This document shows positions 21,670 to 31,629 of a stretch of 35,225 bases of DNA, one piece after another. A model generated the notes under the pieces. That model searched no databases and was not told where the DNA came from. It saw only the letters and a program-made list of their open reading frames with translations. The stretch comes from Chloroflexota bacterium (GTDB taxonomy: Bacteria; Chloroflexota; Limnocylindria; Limnocylindrales; CSP1-4). Made by a program: the position numbers and the translations under genes. Location: the NCBI GenBank assembly GCA_004298915.1, contig SCTE01000249.1, positions 1 to 35,225 on the forward strand, read 5' to 3'. The number at the start of each line of letters is the position of its first letter. Position 1 is the stretch's first letter.

Positions 21670-22776
21670 ATGAAAGGACCGTCTGTGACCAAGCGCCGCA
21701 TCGTCGCGAACGTGCTCATCGCGTCCGCCATCGCCGTCACGCTCGTCGGCATCGGGCTCATCTCGAAGAACCGAGATGCGCTCACGGCCCAGGCCACCGG
21801 CTCGCCCGGCGTACCCACGGACTCGACGTCCGTCCCGACGCCCAGCCTGACTGCCACCGCGTCCGGATCACCGCTCGAGACGCCGAGTTCCACGTCGAGT
21901 GCGGGCGAGCCGACCTCGCCACCCGAAACCACGAAGCCGGGTCGGACGCCCGGTCCCACGCCGCCGCCAACACCGAAGCCCGCGGCATGGCCGGCGATCG
22001 GCCACATCTACACGATCGTCATGGAGAACGAGGAGGCAACCTCGATCATCGGCAGCGCCAAGGCGCCGTACATCAACAGCCTTGCGGCCACCTACGGGCT
22101 CGCGGCGAACTTCACGGCCGTGGCGCATCCGTCCGAACCGAACTACGTCGCGATGTTCTCGGGCTCGACGCAGGGTGTGACCGACGACGCCACGCACACG
22201 TTCACCAAGGTGGCCAACCTCGCCGACCAGATCGAGGCCTCCGGGCGCGACTGGCATGTCGCGGCGCAGAACGTGAAGCTCGAGTGCTTCGCCGGGACCT
22301 CGTCGTCGGGCGGAGCGGACGGCGCCGGAACGTACGTTCGCAAGCACGAGCCGGCCATCATGTTCAGCCAGATCGCCTCGAACCCTGGCCGCTGCGCCAA
22401 GATCACCGACTTCACCCACTTCGATCCGAACCTGGGCAACTACTGGTTCATCGCCCCGAACCTGTGCAACGACATGCATGACTGTCCGATTGCAACGGGC
22501 GACGCCTTCCTGAGGTCGTTCCTGCCGACGATCCTCGACTCGGCCGCGTTCAGGAAGGACGGCCTGATCTTCCTGACCTTCGACGAGGGGTCGTCGAAGA
22601 AGGGCGGCGGCGGCGAGGTCGTCACGGTCGTCATCAGCCCGAAGGGCAAGGCCGGGTACGTCTCGAACGTCGCCTACAACCACTACTCGGTGCTGCGAAC
22701 GATCGAGACGCTCTGGAAGATGCCCTGCCTCGCCAACGCCTGCAAGGCCGCGCCCATGCGGGACATGTTCCGCTGA
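21670..22776 (+). CDS. phosphoesterase-family protein (acid phosphatase / phospholipase C-like), membrane-anchored with a Pro/Thr linker
   Basis: An N-terminal TM segment and PT-rich linker are followed by IYTIVMENEEA...APYINSLA...HPSEPNYVAMFSGSTQG...FIAPNLCNDMHDC...LTFDEG, typical of the phosphoesterase family. An alternative start is GTG at 21685. Confidence 0.75.
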   Translation: MKGPSVTKRRIVANVLIASAIAVTLVGIGLISKNRDALTAQATGSPGVPTDSTSVPTPSLTATASGSPLETPSSTSSAGEPTSPPETTKPGRTPGPTPPPTPKPAAWPAIGHIYTIVMENEEATSIIGSAKAPYINSLAATYGLAANFTAVAHPSEPNYVAMFSGSTQGVTDDATHTFTKVANLADQIEASGRDWHVAAQNVKLECFAGTSSSGGADGAGTYVRKHEPAIMFSQIASNPGRCAKITDFTHFDPNLGNYWFIAPNLCNDMHDCPIATGDAFLRSFLPTILDSAAFRKDGLIFLTFDEGSSKKGGGGEVVTVVISPKGKAGYVSNVAYNHYSVLRTIETLWKMPCLANACKAAPMRDMFR

Positions 22777-22861: not shown

Positions 22862-22978
22862 ACGGGGGCGTCGCAGCACGCTGAACGGCTGGACGGGCCG
22901 AGAGTGTAGCACGAGGTCGGGCGAATTCCGGGTGGCTGCCCTGCCCGAACGGATCCGGAGACCGGGTCGATTTGGCCA

Positions 22979-23007
22979 TTGATTCATTCGAACAGATGTT
23001 CGATACT
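22979..23007 (+). promoter_or_regulatory. LexA (SOS) box TCGAACAGATGTTCGA inside the imuA' promoter (-35 TTGATT, 17-bp spacer, -10 GATACT)
   Basis: The box at 22988-23003 is a perfect palindrome matching the actinobacterial consensus TCGAAC-N4-GTTCGA. The -10 ends 9 nt before the ATG at 23017, so the mRNA is leaderless or nearly so. Confidence 0.8.
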
Positions 23008-23016
23008 TACCATCTC

Positions 23017-24192
23017 ATGGCAACCCTGTCCGCGGATGTGACGACCGCCCTCGCGACCCTGCAATCGCGCTGGGGAGCGGCCGCGCCGCGCCCCGGGGAA
23101 GTGATGGGAGCACTCGCGCTGGCGCCTGCCGTCCTGCCGGATGCGGCCACGAACCCGGACCCGACGCCCGACCTCGCGCGCGTCTACTCCACCGGGTTCC
23201 CGGCGCTGGATGCCATCCTCGGGCCGGGGGGCCTGCCACGCGGGATGGGCCTTTCGCTGCGGGGCGAGCTCTCGAGCGGGCGGACGACGATCGCCCTCCG
23301 GCTCGCTGCCGAGGCGCAGGCGAGTGGCGCCATCGTGGCCTGGCTTGATCTCGCGGAGGCCTTCGATCCGGTCGAAGCCGCGGCCCGCGGCATGCAGCTG
23401 GAGTGGCTGGTAGTGCTCACCCCGGCTGGCCCGGAGGAGGGCCTCGCGATCGCGGGGTCGCTCCTGTCCGGCCGGACCGTGGACCTGCTCGTCATGGACC
23501 TGCCGCCTCGTCCGGACGGAGCGTCGCGCTTTGCCGATCGACTCGGGCGGCTCGCCGCCCTGGCTCGCCGGGCGGGTATCTCGCTGCTCATCCTCGAACC
23601 GCCGGGCCTCGTGAACTCGGTGGCGGCCGCGGTCGGGGAGGGCACGGGCATCCGCCTCGAACTCGAGCGACGGTCATGGATCCGGCTTGGCCGCGATGTC
23701 GTCGGGCAGGCCGCCGATGTCGTCGTCGCGCGGAGCCGGGCCGGCCCACCCGGGCGGCGGACCACGCTCCGGATCCTCTATGCCGACGGCGGGGATCGGG
23801 ATGCGTGCCTCCGCCAGGAGGCCCTCCTCAGGGAAGGCTTGCCGGCCGAGGTCGTGCCCATCCGGGCCAACCCCCGCGCCGGCAGTACCACCGACCGATC
23901 CACCCGATTCGCCGCCCCAATTCATGCCCCCGTTCCAGTGCCCGGGACGACCCATGCAACTCCTTCATTGCTATCGCCCGCATCTCCTCCTCGACCTGAC
24001 CAGGCAGCGCCGGGCCTCCGGCTCGTGGCCGGCGGGCCCGATCGTCCTCGGGGGCCAGCCATGGGGCGCGGGGACCGTGCTGGACGCGGATCCCGCGGCC
24101 CGGCACCTCGGCGTCCGGCGCGGGATGCCGCTCGGGTCGGCTCACCGGCTGGCACCGGAGGCAACCTTCCTCGATCCGGAACCGGAGGCTGA
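23017..24192 (+). CDS. imuA: ImuA/ImuA'-type RecA-fold SOS mutasome protein
   Basis: GFPALDAILGPGGLPRGMGLSLRGELSSGRTTIALRLAAEAQASGAIVAWLDLAEAFDP...VDLLVMDL parallels the RecA core. The gene is preceded by a LexA box and followed by imuB. The conserved part ends near aa 275, but the frame stays open to 24192. Confidence 0.75.
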   Translation: MATLSADVTTALATLQSRWGAAAPRPGEVMGALALAPAVLPDAATNPDPTPDLARVYSTGFPALDAILGPGGLPRGMGLSLRGELSSGRTTIALRLAAEAQASGAIVAWLDLAEAFDPVEAAARGMQLEWLVVLTPAGPEEGLAIAGSLLSGRTVDLLVMDLPPRPDGASRFADRLGRLAALARRAGISLLILEPPGLVNSVAAAVGEGTGIRLELERRSWIRLGRDVVGQAADVVVARSRAGPPGRRTTLRILYADGGDRDACLRQEALLREGLPAEVVPIRANPRAGSTTDRSTRFAAPIHAPVPVPGTTHATPSLLSPASPPRPDQAAPGLRLVAGGPDRPRGPAMGRGDRAGRGSRGPAPRRPARDAARVGSPAGTGGNLPRSGTGG

Positions 24193-25213
24193 TCGGGCGT
24201 CCATCGAGGCCGCCTTCGAGGCGCTCGCGACGTTCAGCCCGGCGATTGCCGGATCAGCCGATCCCGCGGACCAGGCATTCGGCCTGCTCGAGGCCCAGAT
24301 CGACGGCCTCGAGCTCCTGTGGGGCCCGGAGCCGGTCCTCGTCGAACGGATCGGCGCGAAGCTGGCGCCGATCCTCGCCGGGCGGCCCCGCAACGGCATT
24401 GCCGGGACGCGCTTCGCGGCGATGGTCGCGGCGGCGACCGCGGAGCCCGGGGCGTTGATGTCCGTGCCCCCCGGCGGGGAAGCAGCCTTCCTGGCGCCGA
24501 TGCCGACCGGGCTGCTGACCCAGGATGCCGAGATCCGGGCCCGCCTGCGGCGCTTCGGGCTGCGCCGGATCGGGCAGGTTGCCGAGCTCGCCGCGTCCGC
24601 GCTCGTGGCCAGGTTCGGGGAGGAAGGCGCCCGGATCGGGGCCCGGGCCCGGGGCGAGGAGACCGATCCCTTCCGGCCGCGCCGGGCCCCCGAGCGATTG
24701 CTCCTGGCCCTCCCGATCGAGCCGCCGGTCGCGGAGCTGGAGGCCGTCCGGTTCGTGCTGCGACGGATCGCCACCGCGCTTGCCGCGAACCTCGCGGCCC
24801 GCGGCCTTGCGGCCGCGCGCGGGCAGGTCCGCCTGGAGCTGGATCTCGCCTTCGCCCGCGCGGGGACACGCGGCGAGGTGATCATCCAGGCGCGGTTCCC
24901 CGAGCCGACCGCCGATGCGGAGGCGATCGAGCGGCTGCTCCTGGCGCACCTCGAGCGGACCCCACCCCCGGCCCCGGTCGCCCGCCTGGAGCTCGAGCTG
25001 TCCGGTGCCGAGCCGGCCGAGGGTCAGCAGCTGCCGCTGTTCATCCCGCAGGCCCTGCGCGGCGCACGGCTGCGCTGGCAACTTGCCCGATTGGCGATGA
25101 CCTATGGCGAGGATCGCGTTCGCAGCGTGGTCATCACGGACCCGGAAGCGCCGCTGTCCGAGAATCGCTGGGCCTGGCGGGCGGTGGCAGGCGCGGGCGG
25201 GCCCCTCCGATGA
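23954..25213 (+). CDS. imuB: ImuB, Y-family-polymerase-like mutasome subunit
   Basis: MQLLHCYRPHLLLDL...VLDADPAARHLGVRRGMPLGSA...LEAQIDGLELLWG resembles the DinB fold but lacks the catalytic acidic N-terminal motif. The position is typical for imuB. Confidence 0.85.
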   Translation: MQLLHCYRPHLLLDLTRQRRASGSWPAGPIVLGGQPWGAGTVLDADPAARHLGVRRGMPLGSAHRLAPEATFLDPEPEADRASIEAAFEALATFSPAIAGSADPADQAFGLLEAQIDGLELLWGPEPVLVERIGAKLAPILAGRPRNGIAGTRFAAMVAAATAEPGALMSVPPGGEAAFLAPMPTGLLTQDAEIRARLRRFGLRRIGQVAELAASALVARFGEEGARIGARARGEETDPFRPRRAPERLLLALPIEPPVAELEAVRFVLRRIATALAANLAARGLAAARGQVRLELDLAFARAGTRGEVIIQARFPEPTADAEAIERLLLAHLERTPPPAPVARLELELSGAEPAEGQQLPLFIPQALRGARLRWQLARLAMTYGEDRVRSVVITDPEAPLSENRWAWRAVAGAGGPLR

Positions 25214-25458
25214 CGAGGCTCCTTCATGCGCACCCGGCCATCGAGCCGGAACTCGATGGTGGTGGTGCGCTCGTGGCCATCCGCTGGGCGGGTCGCCGGG
25301 AGCCCGTCGAGGTCTGCAATCGCTGGCGGGTCGAGGAGACCTGGTGGCGCGAGCCGATCGCGCGGGACTATTTCAAGGTCGTCGGAACGCGCTGGCTCGC
25401 GCTCATCTACTACGACCGCGTCAGCGGCTCATGGCACCTGGAGCGGCTCTACGACTGA
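25210..25458 (+). CDS. small Trp/Arg-rich conserved-looking protein (82 aa) translationally coupled to imuB
   Basis: The ATG at 25210 overlaps the imuB TGA (ATGA). The product is MTRLLHAHPAIEPELDGGGALVAIRWAGRREPVEVCNRWRVEETWWREPIARDYFKVVGTRWLALIYYDRVSGSWHLERLYD. It may belong to a catalogued DUF (I recall DUF6504). That assignment is unverified. Confidence 0.65.
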   Translation: MTRLLHAHPAIEPELDGGGALVAIRWAGRREPVEVCNRWRVEETWWREPIARDYFKVVGTRWLALIYYDRVSGSWHLERLYD

Positions 25459-25602: not shown

Positions 25603-25741
25603 CAAACATCTCCCCGATCGCCGTCGAACCGGTCCCGGTCGGTTCGCCCGAAGGAGTGTAGCTGCGAATCGCACATCGTGCGAGCGAAAAATTCAGCCGA
25701 TGGAACGCCCGTTCGAAGTCTCGAGGTCCGATGCCCCTCCG

Positions 25742-25864: not shown

Positions 25865-26461
25865 TCAGCCCGTGAACGGACACCCGGCGCCGTACAGGAT
25901 CGACACGATCGTACTGCTCCCGAGGGGCATGACCGTGACCCGCACCTGGCAGGCGGGATGGATGTCGACCCCCGAGAGTTCGAGGCTGCCGTCCTCGCGA
26001 GGCCCAGACGCGCCCACGATGATCCAGCCGGCCCCCTGGAGCGCGGTCTGGTAGAAGTTCATGACGGCACCGGGCTCGGCCGCTCCCGCGTCGAGTGTCG
26101 CGCTGGCCGGGCCGGCTCCGGTCTCGGTCGGATGCGCACCCGGGTACGTCGGAAAGCCCGTCGGGAGTCCGTCCCAGATGCGTCCCCAATCGGTATCCGT
26201 CTGTCCGGGCATCGTCGGCGCGGCGGTGGCGCCGGGCTCCGTCGGGACGGGCGTGAGCTCGGCCGTGGGTTCCGCGAGCGACGGCACCGGCGATAGCGAC
26301 TGGGTCGACGTCGGCCCAGGGGTGCCCTGCACGGTGGAACAGCCGGCGACCAGGCACGCCGTCAGGCCGATGACCGCAAGGGCGTGGACAGCGCTGGGCC
26401 GGGGGCGTCGCCTCGCCGCCTGCGCGGACAGGCGAGGACTGATCGGGTAGGGCGGCTGCAC
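25865..26461 (-). CDS. hypothetical lipoprotein
   Basis: A signal peptide with a positive n-region and lipobox (RRRPRPSAVHALAVIGLTACLVAGCS) is followed by a Pro/Thr linker and a ~110-aa domain (MNFYQTALQGAGWIIVG...). Confidence 0.7.
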   Translation of the reverse strand: MQPPYPISPRLSAQAARRRPRPSAVHALAVIGLTACLVAGCSTVQGTPGPTSTQSLSPVPSLAEPTAELTPVPTEPGATAAPTMPGQTDTDWGRIWDGLPTGFPTYPGAHPTETGAGPASATLDAGAAEPGAVMNFYQTALQGAGWIIVGASGPREDGSLELSGVDIHPACQVRVTVMPLGSSTIVSILYGAGCPFTG

Positions 26462-26627
26462 GGGGGAATCCTACCCCGAGCGTGGCAGGACCCCGCCGCC
26501 CCCAGATGCGACGGGGTCCTGTGCGTGGTCCGATCACCTGCTCACCAGGTGCCGGCCGATCGGTGACCGGCGTGGTACCGATCCCCGAGCCTCACCCCGG
26601 CTCTGCGCCGGAGCGGTGCTTTCGAGT

Positions 26628-26759
26628 TCAGGTTCCGGTCTGGGCTGCCAGGGCCGCCGGGAGGAGGACGAGGATCAGGAGACTCACGATGGCGATCATC
26701 GCGACGATCCTCGTCAGGACGGCGGCAAGGCTGCGAAACGAACGGAAGCCTGTTTCCAC
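26628..26759 (-). CDS. small single-TM peptide (43 aa from GTG 26759; up to 61 aa if GTG 26813)
   Basis: METGFRSFRSLAAVLTRIVAMIAIVSLLILVLLPAALAAQTGT*. About 36 of 43 codons end in G or C. It is transcribed divergently from dnaE2. The start codon is uncertain and the SD is weak. Confidence 0.35.
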   Translation of the reverse strand: METGFRSFRSLAAVLTRIVAMIAIVSLLILVLLPAALAAQTGT

Positions 26760-26808
26760 GGCCCTTCTGACGCCACCGGGCGACAAGTTGTTGCGTCGCC
26801 GGGCGAAC

Positions 26809-26837
26809 TTCACGGTATCGAACAGATGTTCTATACT
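26809..26837 (+). promoter_or_regulatory. LexA (SOS) box TCGAACAGATGTTCTA inside the dnaE2 promoter (-35 TTCACG, 17-bp spacer, -10 TATACT)
   Basis: The box is at 26818-26833. The 20-nt stretch TCGAACAGATGTTC[G/T]ATACT is 19/20 identical to the imuA' promoter element, and the box sits at the same position relative to the -10. Confidence 0.75.
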
Positions 26838-26874
26838 GCCCGTTCATCTGCCCCCCCCGACACCGGGACCTGCC

Positions 26875-29800
26875 GTGGCTCAATTCCCGTACGCGGAGCT
26901 CCACTGTCACTCCAACTTCTCGTTCCTCGACGGGGCGTCGCCGGTCGAGGACCTGGTGGCACGGGCAGTCGAGCTCGGCCTGACCGGCCTCGGGATCACC
27001 GACCACCTCGGCCTGTATGGCGTGGTCCGATTTGCGGCGGCAGCCGAGGCGGCAGGCCTCCACCCGGTCATCGGAGTGGAAGTCGAGCTGCTCGACGCCG
27101 TCGTCGCCGATCCCTCAGGGGTCGTGGTCCCGGGTCGCCGGGCTGCGCGCCGCGGACGCCCGCCTGCAACCACGTCGATGGCTCCGTTCGACGTGATCGG
27201 TGCGGCCGGGGCCGTCGAGGGCCTGCCTGCGCGGCGGCGACCGGAGCGTGCCAGGCCCCCCGGCCATCGAGCGATCGTGAAGGAGGACCTGCGAGGGATC
27301 GGGGAACGCCAGCGGGGCCCGCATCTCGTGCTGCTGGCCCGGGACGCGACCGGGTACCGGAGCCTGTGCCGTCTCGTGTCCCATGCCAACCTGGCCGGCA
27401 CCAAGCGCGTGCCGCGGTTCAGCCAGGCGCTCCTCGCCGAGCATGCCGAGGGTCTCGTGGCGCTGTCCGGCTGCCGGGACGGCGAGATCGCCCGGCGACT
27501 CCTGGTGGGAGACCGCGCGGGGGCACGGGCGGCGGCGGAGCGGTATGCGAGGATCTTCGGGGGGAGCGGCGGCTCGCGTGTCCGGGCCGGCACTTCCGGG
27601 GACGGGCCCGCCACGAGCGGCTTCTTCCTCGAGCTGTCCCATCACCTGCTCCCCGACGACGACTGGCTCGTCGCCGAGACGGCGTCGCTCGCCGCCGACA
27701 TCGGGCTGCCCGTCGTCACCACGAACGACGTCCACCACGCCCGGGCCGAGGATCGCGAGCTCGGCGACGTCCTGACGGCCATCGCGCATGGGCGGACGCT
27801 CGACACGCTCGCCGACCTGCGCCGGCCGAACGGGGAATCGCACCTCAAGTCGGGTGCGGACCTCATGGCGATGCCGCCGGGGGACGCGGCCTTCGCGCGG
27901 GCGGACCCTGCGACGGCCAGGGCCTGGGTCGAGGGGATGGGCAATGCCGTCGAGGTCGCGGCCTCGTGCACCGTCGACCTCGGGTTCGAGCGGTATCGCT
28001 TCCCGGGCTTCCCGGTGCCCGCCGGGGAGACGGCGTTCAGCTATCTCGTCGAGCTCTGCCAGGCCGGCGTCCGTCGCCGCTACCACCCGGTCTCGCCGCC
28101 GGTCGTCCGGCAGCTCGCCCACGAGCTCGATGTCGTCGAGAAGACCGGGCTCGCCGAGTTCTTCCTGATCTGCTGGGACCTGATGCGCTTCGCGAAGGAG
28201 CGGGGGATCCCGGCCCAGGGCCGGGGCAGCGCCGCGGATTCGATCATCGCCTATGCCCTCGGGATCACCCGGGTCGATCCGATCCGCCACAACCTGCTGT
28301 TCGAGCGGTTCATCAACGAGGGCCGGACGACGTACCCGGACGTGGACATCGACTTCTCCTCGGAGCGGCGGGAGGAGGTCATCCAGTACGTCTATCAGCG
28401 CTACGGCCCGGAGCACACGGGGATGGTCTGCAACCTCGTCACGTACCGGGCGCGATCCGCCGTCCGCGAGGTCGGCTATGCGCTGGGGTTCCCGCGGCCG
28501 CTGGTCGATCGGGTGGCCAAGGCGCTCGAGACGTACGACAGCGTGATGGTGCGGCGGGACCTCGAGGCGGATGGGGGATTCGCGGACTTCTTCCGTCGAC
28601 CGGGGGACGAGGGGAGTGGCGGCGCCGCTGGCGAGGCGGTCGCGGCAGCAGCGGCACGAACCGGGGAGCGCGGCCTGACCGATCGGATGGGCCAACTCAA
28701 CGTGCGACGCGGTGGAGTGCCCCGTCCGGCCGGCGCGGGGAGCGGCGGGCGTGCCGTGCCCGGGGCCGTGCCGAGGGGCCGGCCCGAGGTTGTGCCCGGG
28801 GCCGTGCCGGTGGGCCGACCCGAAGTTGTGCCCGGGGCCGTGCCGGGTCGCCGGCCCGAGGGCGTGCCCGGGGCCGTGCCGGGTCGCCGGCCCGGACTTG
28901 GCCAAACGAACATCCCCGGATTACTGGGCAGCGAACAGGCGGCAACCAGGCCCGGCAGCTCCCCGGGCCTGGCCGAAATCATCCCGGCGGGAGCGTGGCT
29001 CGGGACAAATCCTGCCGGGCAGGACGGGGAGTCGGGGCACGGTGGGGGCTCGGTGCTGCCCAGCGATCCCCCGGTGGTAGTACGGCAGGAAGTTGCGGCC
29101 CAGATCGCTCCTACCACGGCCGCGGCCCCCGCCTCGCCGTCCCGGGCCGGCCCGGGGCCGCCGGTTGCCGCCGGCAGCGGCCACCGCGGCGGCACTTGGG
29201 CCATGGCCGCGGGATCCAAGCCGTCCATTCGAGCGGGTGGCGTGTCGGACGACAAGGGTGGCCCGGGCGATTCGCCGGCGAGCGTGGCGTGGCTGGAGTC
29301 GGGGCGTGGCACGGGATACGGGTCGGGTAGCGGGGATGGCCGCGGAGCGGGGCCGGCGTCCGTGGCGCCCGGCACGGTCGATGGCCGCGCGATCGATCCC
29401 GAATCGGGAGCAGTGGCGCCGCCCACGAGGCGCACGGATCGCCTGGGGCGGCCGCATCGCTGGGACCCGCCCGCGCCGCCGACGCACGGGATGGGCCGCG
29501 GGGGAGCGGGCCCTGGTGCCGCCGCGAGTGCCGCGGCCGGCGCGCCGCAGAGTTCCGTGGCGCGCGTGGAGCCCGAAGTGCCGGCCCACCCCCGTGGCGG
29601 GAGCACGATCGGGATGTCCGACTGGGAGCGCTGGCTCGAGTTCTGCGCCCGGATCGACGGGTTCCCGCGGCACCTCAGCATCCATTCCGGCGGGATGCTC
29701 GTGACGGCTGCCCCGCTCATCGACATCGCACCGCTGGAGCGCGCGACGATGAAGGACCGCGTCGTCGTCCAATTCGACAAGCGCGACGTCGAGACGCTCA

Positions 29801-31629
29801 AGCTGATCAAGCTCGACCTGCTCGGGCTCGGCATGCTCGCGGCCATCGACGAGACGCTCCAGCTCATCGAGAGCGACTGCGCGACCTGCATCGACCTCGA
29901 CGCCATTCCCGAGGAGATCCCCGAGGTCTTCGCGATGCTCCAGGCCGCCGACACCGTCGGCGTGTTCCAGGTGGAAAGCCGGGCCCAGATGCAGACCCTG
30001 CCGAAATCGAGGCCCGCCAGCCTGGACGATCTCGTCGTGGAGGTCGCGATCATCCGCCCAGGCCCGATCCAGGGCAACGCCGTCCACCCGTACCTGCGAC
30101 GCAAGCAGGGGCTCGAACCCGTGACCTATCTCCATCCGAGCCTCGAGCCGATCCTCGCCGAGACCCTTGGCGTGATCCTGTACCAGGAGCAGGTCATGAA
30201 GGTCGCGATCGAGGTCGCCGGGTTCACGCCGGCCGATTCGGACGGGTTCCGGCGGGCGATGGGCACGTGGCGATCGACCGGCGAGATGGAGAAGCTCCAT
30301 CGCCAGTTCGTGGACGGCTGCCTGCGCCAGCCCGGCATGACCGCGGAGGTCGCCGAGGAGCTGTTCGGCAAGGTGGCGGCGTTCGCGAGCTTCGGGTTCG
30401 CCAAGAGCCACGCGGCGGCGTTCGCGCGGACGGCCTATGAATCGAGCTTCCTCAAGCTGTTCTATCCCGCCCAGTTCCTGGTCGGGCTCATCAACGCCCA
30501 GCCGATGGGCTTCTACCCGGTCGAGGTCCTGATCAACGACGCCAAGCGCCACGGGGTGGCGATCCTGCCGGTCGACATCAACGCCTCGCGCTACAAGACG
30601 ACGACCGAGTGGGCGGGCCGGCCCGGCTGGGCCATCGCGGGCACGGCCGGAGACCCGCCGGCACCCGGGGCCGAGGGGCCACACGACGGCGATGAGGGCG
30701 AGCCGATCCCCGAGGGCGCCGGGATCACGAGCCGACCGGTCCCGGTCCGGTCCTCGGCGTGCTTCAACCCGATGAGCGCGGCACGCGATCGATGGGCGGC
30801 CGGGGATGCCGTGGGCTGGGGCGTGCGCCTCGGGCTGCATCTGGTCAAGGGGATCGGAGAGCAGCACGAGACGCTGCTCGACCGGGAGCTTGCGCGGGGC
30901 CCGTACGCCTCGCTGGCCGATGTCGTCGAACGGACCGGGCTGCCCGAGGAGGTCATCGAGCGGCTGATCCGGACCGGGGCGCTCGATTCGCTGGGGCGGC
31001 CCCGGCGCGAACTGCTGTGGCAACTGCGCGAGGTGGCGGGGGCGTCGCGGGGCCGGGTCGATGGCCAGGCACTCAGGGTCGCGAAGCAGGCCCGCGGCAG
31101 GAAGTCCGCGTCGGCGGGCCGCCCGATGGACCTGCGATTGCCCGCGACGGAGGCACCGGACCTGCCGCCCATCACGGAATCGGAGCGGGTCGGCGATGCC
31201 TACGCGGTGGTGGGGCTCGACGCGAGGCGACAGGTCGTGTCCCTGTTCCGGCCGGCGCTGGACCGGTTGGGCGCCGTCACGAACGGCTCACTTGCCGATC
31301 GGAAGCAGGGGCCGGTGCGGATCGGCGGGCTGGTCGTGACCCGCCAGCACCCGATGACCGCGAAGGGCACGGTCTTCCTCGCGGTCGAGGACGAGACGGG
31401 CATGGTCAACGTCACGCTATGGCCGGATACGTGGGCGCGGCTGCGAGGTGTCGTCCGGCGTCACGCGCTGCTCCTGATCGACGGCGACCTCCAGCGAGAG
31501 TCGTCGGTCGTGAACGTCGTGGCGCGCGATGTCAGGCCGTTGCCGGAGCTTGCCGTCGAGACGGCCGGACCGGGCGGCCCGGAGGGCGTCCGCCAGCTCG
31601 GCCATGCCGGCATGCGCCGGCTGGGCTGA
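26875..31629 (+). CDS. dnaE2: error-prone DNA polymerase III alpha-type subunit DnaE2, unusually long (~1584 aa)
   Basis: A GTG at 26875 opens VAQFPYAELHCHSNFSFLDGASPVEDLV (PHP domain). Downstream blocks are PRHLSIHSGGMLV, LKLDLLGLGML, VFQVESRAQM, IIRPGPIQG, ILYQEQVM and FGFAKSHAAAFA, followed by an OB-fold tail. The gene is LexA-boxed and pairs with imuA/imuB. The upstream part of the track ORF (26482-26874) holds the promoter. Confidence 0.9.
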   Translation: MAQFPYAELHCHSNFSFLDGASPVEDLVARAVELGLTGLGITDHLGLYGVVRFAAAAEAAGLHPVIGVEVELLDAVVADPSGVVVPGRRAARRGRPPATTSMAPFDVIGAAGAVEGLPARRRPERARPPGHRAIVKEDLRGIGERQRGPHLVLLARDATGYRSLCRLVSHANLAGTKRVPRFSQALLAEHAEGLVALSGCRDGEIARRLLVGDRAGARAAAERYARIFGGSGGSRVRAGTSGDGPATSGFFLELSHHLLPDDDWLVAETASLAADIGLPVVTTNDVHHARAEDRELGDVLTAIAHGRTLDTLADLRRPNGESHLKSGADLMAMPPGDAAFARADPATARAWVEGMGNAVEVAASCTVDLGFERYRFPGFPVPAGETAFSYLVELCQAGVRRRYHPVSPPVVRQLAHELDVVEKTGLAEFFLICWDLMRFAKERGIPAQGRGSAADSIIAYALGITRVDPIRHNLLFERFINEGRTTYPDVDIDFSSERREEVIQYVYQRYGPEHTGMVCNLVTYRARSAVREVGYALGFPRPLVDRVAKALETYDSVMVRRDLEADGGFADFFRRPGDEGSGGAAGEAVAAAAARTGERGLTDRMGQLNVRRGGVPRPAGAGSGGRAVPGAVPRGRPEVVPGAVPVGRPEVVPGAVPGRRPEGVPGAVPGRRPGLGQTNIPGLLGSEQAATRPGSSPGLAEIIPAGAWLGTNPAGQDGESGHGGGSVLPSDPPVVVRQEVAAQIAPTTAAAPASPSRAGPGPPVAAGSGHRGGTWAMAAGSKPSIRAGGVSDDKGGPGDSPASVAWLESGRGTGYGSGSGDGRGAGPASVAPGTVDGRAIDPESGAVAPPTRRTDRLGRPHRWDPPAPPTHGMGRGGAGPGAAASAAAGAPQSSVARVEPEVPAHPRGGSTIGMSDWERWLEFCARIDGFPRHLSIHSGGMLVTAAPLIDIAPLERATMKDRVVVQFDKRDVETLKLIKLDLLGLGMLAAIDETLQLIESDCATCIDLDAIPEEIPEVFAMLQAADTVGVFQVESRAQMQTLPKSRPASLDDLVVEVAIIRPGPIQGNAVHPYLRRKQGLEPVTYLHPSLEPILAETLGVILYQEQVMKVAIEVAGFTPADSDGFRRAMGTWRSTGEMEKLHRQFVDGCLRQPGMTAEVAEELFGKVAAFASFGFAKSHAAAFARTAYESSFLKLFYPAQFLVGLINAQPMGFYPVEVLINDAKRHGVAILPVDINASRYKTTTEWAGRPGWAIAGTAGDPPAPGAEGPHDGDEGEPIPEGAGITSRPVPVRSSACFNPMSAARDRWAAGDAVGWGVRLGLHLVKGIGEQHETLLDRELARGPYASLADVVERTGLPEEVIERLIRTGALDSLGRPRRELLWQLREVAGASRGRVDGQALRVAKQARGRKSASAGRPMDLRLPATEAPDLPPITESERVGDAYAVVGLDARRQVVSLFRPALDRLGAVTNGSLADRKQGPVRIGGLVVTRQHPMTAKGTVFLAVEDETGMVNVTLWPDTWARLRGVVRRHALLLIDGDLQRESSVVNVVARDVRPLPELAVETAGPGGPEGVRQLGHAGMRRLG
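28756..28899 (+). repeat. 4 x 36-bp in-frame tandem repeat inside dnaE2 (12-aa unit VPGAVPxGRPEV)
   Basis: The units are 28756-28791, 28792-28827, 28828-28863 and 28864-28899. All begin with the identical 18-mer GTGCCCGGGGCCGTGCCG. Confidence 0.95.

Follow-up and report, generated by a model that had tools for sequence, protein, structure and literature searches.

DnaE2 mutasomes are behind the mutagenesis induced by DNA damage and, in pathogens, behind drug resistance. Here we analyse a dnaE2 gene whose product carries a 343-residue insertion in the thumb, encoded on a 35,225-nucleotide (nt) stretch of DNA from a Chloroflexota bacterium (contig SCTE01000249.1 of assembly GCA_004298915.1, ~71% GC; hereafter the window). 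In a survey of ~2000 genomes, Timinskas et al. (2014) observed variable DnaE2 length in the thumb and PHP domains, noted that its functional importance was not obvious, and found a correlation of DnaE2 core length with GC content (rho 0.58) (PMC3919608). In the accessible sections of that survey, the Chloroflexi are mentioned just as a phylum with DnaE1 and DnaE2, and the thumb helix-loop-helix, residues 513-552 of Thermus aquaticus (Taq) Pol III alpha, is described as adding contacts to duplex DNA and as missing from PolC, Thermotogae DnaE3 and Bacteroidetes DnaE2 (PMC3919608). PolC also provides, in the same sections, a precedent for a large in-frame insertion that is present lineage-wide in a domain of a C-family polymerase (PMC3919608).

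The window protein resembles a typical DnaE2/ImuC in its family model, domain order, imuAB neighbours, the QLPLF motif on ImuB and putative LexA-type operators, but it is ~450-550 amino acids (aa) longer, with a thumb loop of 343 aa rather than a median of 4 and two further expansions of ~70 aa each. Its extra length falls in the same two domains and its ~71% GC fits the correlation described by Timinskas et al.; theirs is, however, a general statistical statement, and a 144-466-aa thumb insertion with conserved motifs is not described in the accessible sections of PMC3919608. The variable element is the one that PolC, DnaE3 and Bacteroidetes DnaE2 lack, changed in the opposite direction, with the window loop expanded up to ~100-fold. 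By contrast with the PolC insert, which is a folded enzymatic domain within PHP, the window insert lies in the thumb loop, is mostly predicted to be disordered and belongs to no recognisable family. From the comparisons below, we conclude with high confidence that the insertion is a real, lineage-wide and selectively maintained thumb-loop extension in the DnaE2, predicted to be SOS-inducible, of Limnocylindria-type Chloroflexota.

The dnaE2 (imuC) coding sequence occupies positions 26875-31629 of the plus strand and encodes 1584 aa plus a stop codon. The longest reading frame around it spans 26482-31629 (+); from the GTG at 26875 the first residues are VAQFPYAELHCHS. This start is supported because homologues begin at the equivalent residue and because a LexA-type box with a TATACT hexamer lies 44 nt upstream. 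The NCBIfam model NF004225 ('error-prone DNA polymerase') matches with 1024.3 bits against a cutoff of 939, while the DnaE1 equivalog models stay below their own cutoffs, in agreement with the initial annotation of the gene as DnaE2. Pfam recognises PHP (aa 8-230), DNA_pol3_alpha, finger (987-1151), HHH_6 (1227-1380) and OB (1481-1556) domains, giving the order PHP - Pol3 core - (HhH)2 - OB, with just 28 residues after OB and no DnaE1-type C-terminal domain. The palm catalytic aspartate motifs PDVDIDF (aa 488) and IKLDLLGLG (aa 978) are present and invariant across the clade, and the PHP motifs are intact. Family model, domain order, catalytic residues and imuAB linkage thus assign the gene to DnaE2/ImuC at the sequence level. 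Three antisense open reading frames (ORFs) lie on the minus strand within dnaE2 (27115-28905, 28476-30104 and 28921-31023); we treat them as probable high-GC artefacts. The plus frame is the one favoured by codon analysis and by the conservation of the frame in the comparative data.

The thumb-loop insertion comprises aa 574-916 (28594-29622, +) and is bounded by DGGFADFF, ending at nt 28593, and WERWLEF, starting at nt 29623, a few codons from the 28590-29613 first assigned to it. The Pfam DNA_pol3_alpha match is broken into two stretches around it, and the NCBIfam DnaE2 model picks up again at residue 917, its profile position 479. In an alignment to Taq Pol III alpha, residue 551 of the window protein corresponds to Taq 525 and residue 920 to Taq 558, so that the insertion lies between them; Escherichia coli residue 495 pairs with residue 921. 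Two structure models (see below) both place helices at aa 556-565/569-572 and 916-926 on either side. Because of this alignment and the bracketing helices, we assign the insertion to the expanded loop of the thumb helix-loop-helix, at its DNA-contacting tip, which refines the earlier placement inside the polymerase core ahead of the PRHxSxHxGG block.

To compare this site outside the clade, the C-terminal 668 aa of the protein, which exclude the insertion, were searched against 1.84 billion cluster representatives, and for each representative in which both flanking anchors were present the site length was taken as the distance between them. Across 111 non-clade DnaE2-like representatives the thumb-loop site measured a median of 4 aa (interquartile range 2-12.5, maximum 148). 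Two smaller expansions seen by eye in the initial annotation held up on measurement. One lies in the PHP domain (aa 73-145, 27091-27309, +; 73 aa versus a median of 10 in non-clade representatives; residues 70 to 148 against Taq 73 to 93), has a predicted local distance difference test (pLDDT) score <50 and keeps its consensus within the clade; the other lies between fingers and HhH (aa 1244-1309, 30604-30801, +; 66 aa versus a median of 7; residues 1240 to 1313 against Taq 878 to 883). With full-length DnaE2 outside the clade at ~1030-1140 aa, the excess of about 500 aa noted at the outset for the 1584-aa protein is also borne out.

Gly, Pro, Ala, Ser and Arg make up 67% of the insertion versus 43% of the rest of DnaE2, and local sequence entropy and hydropathy are lower in the insertion. 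The region had been described as one uninterrupted low-complexity block, a description that alignment does not sustain. Realigning the insertion by a method for conserved blocks separated by unalignable stretches, and aligning all 121 proteins, we found in both alignments a mosaic in which ~150 of the 343 residues form conserved islands between variable spacers. An alignment of 68 sequences holds 152 insertion columns with at least 85% occupancy, and the shortest natural insertions, 144-145 aa, are made almost wholly of islands. In the 121-sequence alignment ten positions are invariant in every sequence (D793, G795, G796, P797, G798, D799, S803, W806, G810 and G812), and about fifty further insertion positions are at least 90% conserved.

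The N-terminal conserved part consists of RRPGDE (aa 574-579, 28594-28611) and island A (aa 592-613, 28648-28713, +; AAARTGERGLTDRMGQLNVRRG), which has an occupancy >0.9, near-invariant G600, D603, M605, G606, L608 and R612, and the consensus ERGLTDxMGQLNxRRG. To the eye, its helix followed by GERGLTDxMGQL has a possible likeness to the RecA-NT motif. All ten invariant positions fall in island D (aa 771-817, 29185-29325, +), whose core at 29248-29319 reads DDKGGPGDSPASVAWLESGRGTGY and whose clade consensus, DDEGGPGDxPASVAWLRAGRGTGY, is nearly invariant. Island E (aa 832-873, 29368-29493, +) runs from VDGRAIDPESG to TDRLGRPHRWDPP, with near-invariant G837, R838, D841-G845, R852, D855, L857-P860 and W863 and the consensus VDGRxIDPESG...TDRLGRPxxWDPP. 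Island F (aa 893-916, 29551-29622, +), SSVARVEPE...PRGGSTIGMSD, runs into the returning thumb helix; its near-invariant residues are S893-R897, P900, R907-T911, G913 and D916, and its consensus ends in PRGGSTxGMSD. Some sublineages carry extra motifs absent from the window, such as VPLVGKVPPWRQPPKPxDPxAPRPFAWL.

The Gly/Pro/Ala/Arg-rich spacers between islands have a sequence and a length of their own in nearly every species. In the window, one variable spacer (aa 628-673) holds an in-frame tandem repeat of 3.9 copies of a 36-nt unit (28756-28894, +; Tandem Repeats Finder score 208, 89% matches) encoding VPGAVPGRRPEV-like units, which the closest homologues lack. Tandem repeats cover 4.9% of insertion DNA versus 1.6% of flanks in 68 segments (67 retrieved loci and the window), and the period is a multiple of 3 in 41 of 52 arrays, with units and positions that differ among species. 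Repeated slippage or duplication in frame, in very GC-rich DNA, is thus the visible mechanism of spacer length change, of which the window's 36-nt repeat is a recent example.

The mosaic is found throughout the clade. The 120 best homologues are all 1362-1687 aa long and, where named, come from Chloroflexota, Candidatus Limnocylindria or Limnocylindrales; every one of these 120 carries an insertion at the thumb-loop site, of 145-428 aa (median 273). When each GTDB species was represented by a single genome and scanned with a profile built from ten short insertions, the module was found encoded in at least 309 species-level genomes, nearly all of them metagenome-assembled genomes (MAGs) of Chloroflexota/Limnocylindria. 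Every matching genome record is a MAG, with no cultured host among them, and the contig names (NODE_, k141_ and contig_ styles) point to differing projects and assembly pipelines. The same profile, searched against an index of 5.8 billion proteins, gave just 65 matches, each a short piece of a DnaE2 gene, and none to another type of protein; it matched no Pfam family at E≤1 and, among PDB sequences at E≤10, gave one non-significant match (E=0.67).

An open frame of more than 1 kb carries little weight alone, because the five other frames of the insertion hold just 0-3 stops each at 73% GC; the weight of the intact frame comes from the comparative data. Among 80 retrieved loci, in which the insertion measures 144-466 aa (median 249), the frame was intact in 67 and changed in 6, while in 7 (several near a contig end) an anchor was not locatable, so that the frame is kept through the insertion in 67 of 73 evaluable species-level genomes. 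Five of the six frame-changed loci belong to one series of MFD MAG assemblies. The dnaE2 gene is called in fragments or changes frame inside the insertion at L003 (4395-6673), L023, L029, L062, L069, L077 and L081. At L002 imuB is split, and L003, with its fragmented dnaE2, is a long-read MAG contig; both are the same kind of assembly as the MFD series. Such loci most likely reflect indel errors in very GC-rich repeats and not truly split genes.

More distant relatives bear on the origin of the module. P0198, an outgroup of 55% identity, carries 214 inserted aa at this thumb-loop site (aa ~530-745); RIDPESG and an IGIWQ motif are retained there, island D is missing, and the insertion has its own (AAPAD)x5 repeat. 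P0237 (45% identity) carries an unrelated 148-aa insertion there (aa ~469-618). Since insertions occur at this site in both, the thumb loop is a permissive, recurrent insertion hot spot, and an older core appears to be the seed around which the Limnocylindria module expanded.

Codon-level selection, a check that the initial annotation had proposed, separates the two components of the mosaic. Between the window and two relatives (~85-87% identity), the ratio of nonsynonymous to synonymous substitution rates (dN/dS) was 0.11-0.13 in the polymerase core, 0.14-0.16 in the islands and 0.41-0.54 in the spacers; over 34 phylogenetically independent species pairs the medians were 0.085, 0.233 and 0.447, respectively, with the spacer values the least reliable because spacer stretches align poorly. 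Island ratios of 0.14-0.23 clearly indicate purifying selection, and the spacers appear much more relaxed than the islands.

The loop had been called disordered, and structure prediction upholds this for part of it. A first AlphaFold run (aa 1-1200, clade-only alignment) scored PHP and palm high and gave pLDDT <50 to both the insertion and the known fingers fold; the low insertion scores of this run are not interpretable alone because the known fold was also <50. In a second run, on aa 500-1000 and with the alignment broadened by 49 diverse DnaE2, the flanks exceeded 90 and aa 612-829, including island D, remained <50, with a short helix at 801-808. A helix at aa 582-598, in the island A region, reached 62-76, island E 74-82 with short strands, and island F 70-86. 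We read the spacers as disordered, islands E and F as probably packed against the thumb, and island D as either disordered until bound or simply not modelled. In composition, pLDDT, length change and embedded islands, the insertion fits a disordered linker with motifs, where disorder is predicted and islands E and F may be ordered.

Taking these observations together, we favour, as on balance probable, an explanation in which the insertion is a maintained thumb-loop mosaic with a binding arm. This middling level for the whole arises because the descriptive part is very probable, while the binding role of the arm, suggested by conservation, position and predicted disorder, is tentative. Islands E and F, possibly joined by the island A helix, would fold back against the thumb as minor structural elements; island D, acidic/aromatic and nearly invariant, would be unstructured alone and serve as a binding motif on a flexible arm; and the spacers would be tolerated tethers, not functional sequence. 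The thumb tip lies near the clamp side in Pol III holoenzyme structures. An arm leaving this DNA-contacting tip would emerge beside the primer-template duplex and the clamp, where candidate partners are the beta clamp, ImuA/RecA, ImuB, a clade-specific 82-aa protein encoded next to imuB, and the polymerase's own DNA groove. A more specific version, which we put forward as rather doubtful, is that the conserved motifs of the thumb arm, with DDEGGPGDxPASVAWLRAGRGTGY foremost among them, rewire the mutasome as a docking or autoregulatory element peculiar to the clade: as a docking element they would tether DnaE2 directly to the clamp, RecA/ImuA or the 82-aa protein, and as an autoregulatory element they would act as an acidic DNA mimic that fills the polymerase DNA groove until the enzyme is recruited.

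Several observations weigh against a maintained mosaic with a binding arm. A simple pattern search found no clamp-binding-type motif in DnaE2, its matches being in ImuB only, and the conserved GQLNVRR of island A lacks the terminal hydrophobic residues of the clamp motif. Island D scores low in AlphaFold despite its near-invariance, which may mean partner-dependent folding or a failure of the model. The spacer dN/dS rests on poor alignments, the insertion has no Pfam family and just the one PDB match at E=0.67, and the unrelated insertion in P0237 shows that the loop tolerates junk. The correlation of DnaE2 length with GC content, in the accessible sections of PMC3919608, fits a partly neutral origin.

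In an alternative reading, which we consider unlikely, the whole insertion is functionless, a permissive surface loop filled by GC-driven low-complexity slippage and merely tolerated. The Gly/Pro/Ala/Ser/Arg bias, the enrichment of in-frame tandem repeats, a length that ranges from 144 to 466 aa, low pLDDT over most of the insertion, the P0237 insertion and, in the part of PMC3919608 cited, the length-GC correlation would all be expected of such a loop. It does not account for ~150 residues conserved clade-wide, ten of them invariant, for an island D conserved like the catalytic core, for island dN/dS of 0.14-0.23, or for the lack of any natural version below ~144 aa, the sum of the islands; slippage in a tolerated loop probably describes the spacers, not the islands. 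We regard it as quite unlikely that, instead, the islands together form a small new folded domain in the thumb, missed by AlphaFold through a shallow alignment. The conserved core is domain-sized (144-152 residues), pLDDT rises to 74-86 in islands E and F, which have short strands, and the first model under-predicted the known fingers fold; on the other hand, the spacers between islands vary greatly in length, up to hundreds of residues, the islands are hydrophobic-poor and Gly/Pro-rich, island D stays <50 even with flanks >90, and the insertion has no Pfam or PDB relative.

The remaining explanations appear extremely improbable. The initial annotation had left two options for the intact frame, a loop that is tolerated or functional and a gene decaying without yet acquiring stops, and the former is the one that stands. 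A pseudogene in the making whose frame is open by chance would gain from the low cost of an open frame at 73% GC, from a GC content at third codon positions of 0.80 in the insertion versus 0.91 in the rest, and from the fragmented dnaE2 calls on some MAG contigs. It is contradicted by a frame that has stayed intact in 67 of 73 species while the insertion changed length many times independently, by a core dN/dS of 0.09-0.13, by intact catalytic and PHP motifs and by conserved LexA boxes and imuAB partners, and the frame-shifted cases cluster in one MFD MAG series, similar assemblies to which split imuB (L002) and fragment dnaE2 (L003). An assembly artefact or chimera has just as little to commend it: the DNA is repeat-rich and very GC-rich, and the 36-nt repeat may have been assembled with a wrong number of copies, but the same islands recur in hundreds of independently assembled genomes from varied projects and pipelines. 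Decay and artefact are both rejected because homologous insertions with a kept frame occur clade-wide. C-family polymerases are known intein hosts, and inteins in DnaE genes are likewise in-frame blocks that interrupt a Pol III alpha homologue, so a clean in-frame insertion might be the remnant of an intein or other mobile insertion, an origin to which we give next to no credence. The window insertion differs in site and composition and has no flanking repeats; it starts with Arg (RRPGDE) and ends in GMSD followed by Trp, without an N-terminal Cys/Ser/Thr or a C-terminal His-Asn plus nucleophile. No Hint, intein or endonuclease family was matched by Pfam in DnaE2 or the ten insertion sequences, and with the splice-junction residues also absent the intein reading was rejected.

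The maintained thumb-loop mosaic sits in an intact imuA-imuB-dnaE2 cassette, predicted to be under SOS-type regulation from its imuAB neighbours and its conserved boxes with -10-like hexamers. Upstream of dnaE2, a LexA/Cheo-type box, GAACAGATGTTC, an exact palindrome at 26820-26831, is followed by the -10-like TATACT (box and hexamer 26820-26837, +). An identical box at 22990-23001 with the -10-like GATACT (22990-23007, +) precedes imuA. The box before imuA is conserved in loci L001 and L002 of two relatives, and that before dnaE2 is conserved in L001 and variant in L002. Further exact GAAC-N4-GTTC sites occur at 22328-22339 and 25703-25714.

The imuA-like gene (provisionally 23017-24192, +) encodes a RecA-fold core, which Pfam RecA matches with 82 bits; NCBIfam likewise yields RecA, together with a much weaker ImuA_translesion match of 21.7 bits. 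The ImuA-like ORF (22972-24192, +) ends in a long stretch rich in Pro, Arg and Gly, which runs into the imuB ORF. The latter (23687-25213, +) encodes Y-family IMS and IMS_C domains, and the true imuB start probably lies downstream of 23687. Its product carries QLPLF, a clamp-binding-type motif, at ORF aa 449-453; a motif of this type has been described for mycobacterial ImuB (PMC11791113), in comparison with which the window ImuB is shorter at its C-terminus. After QLPLF, within ORF aa 449-484, a segment that looks RecA-NT-like by eye, ARLRWQLARLAMTYGEDRVRSVVI, precedes the end of the ORF. An 82-aa ORF (25210-25458, +) shares the 4 nt ATGA with the end of imuB, stop codon included, an arrangement also present in L001 and L002. 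It has 663 homologues, the best 120 of which are almost all 82 aa long (81-128) and 74-96% identical, and no Pfam or NCBIfam family matches it. Because its position matches that of ImuB-C, which in mycobacterial ImuB comes after the RecA-NT motif, it is a candidate for a detached ImuB-C or for a new mutasome subunit; searches by tblastn against plasmids and with the Pfam and NCBIfam models gave no link to ImuB-C. Between the imuAB operon and dnaE2, a minus-strand ORF (25865-26461) with a lipoprotein-signal-like N-terminus (…GLTACLVAGCSTV…) has no Pfam match.

The possibility had been raised that comparable insertions are ubiquitous and already described. They are ubiquitous within the lineage, and no description of the insertion or its motifs was found in the open-access literature searched (a 2026 survey of bacterial polymerases, PMC12926913, recent mutasome work and 2026 Limnocylindria genomics); within that literature, the insertion is a previously undescribed clade-wide variant of a known polymerase, DnaE2. 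It offers a concrete case behind the published and unexplained DnaE2 length variation in thumb and PHP domains that tracks GC content. For annotation, dnaE2 genes encoding 1360-1690 aa in these MAGs should be taken neither as mis-assemblies nor as pseudogenes. The carriers make up an entire class of Chloroflexota, abundant and uncultured, from soil and freshwater, and a docking or autoregulatory element in the thumb arm, if true, would give Limnocylindria a mutasome unlike the mycobacterial ImuA'-ImuB-DnaE2 model. How DnaE2 is recruited and restrained is unsettled, and the thumb-arm variant could reveal an additional contact or control point.

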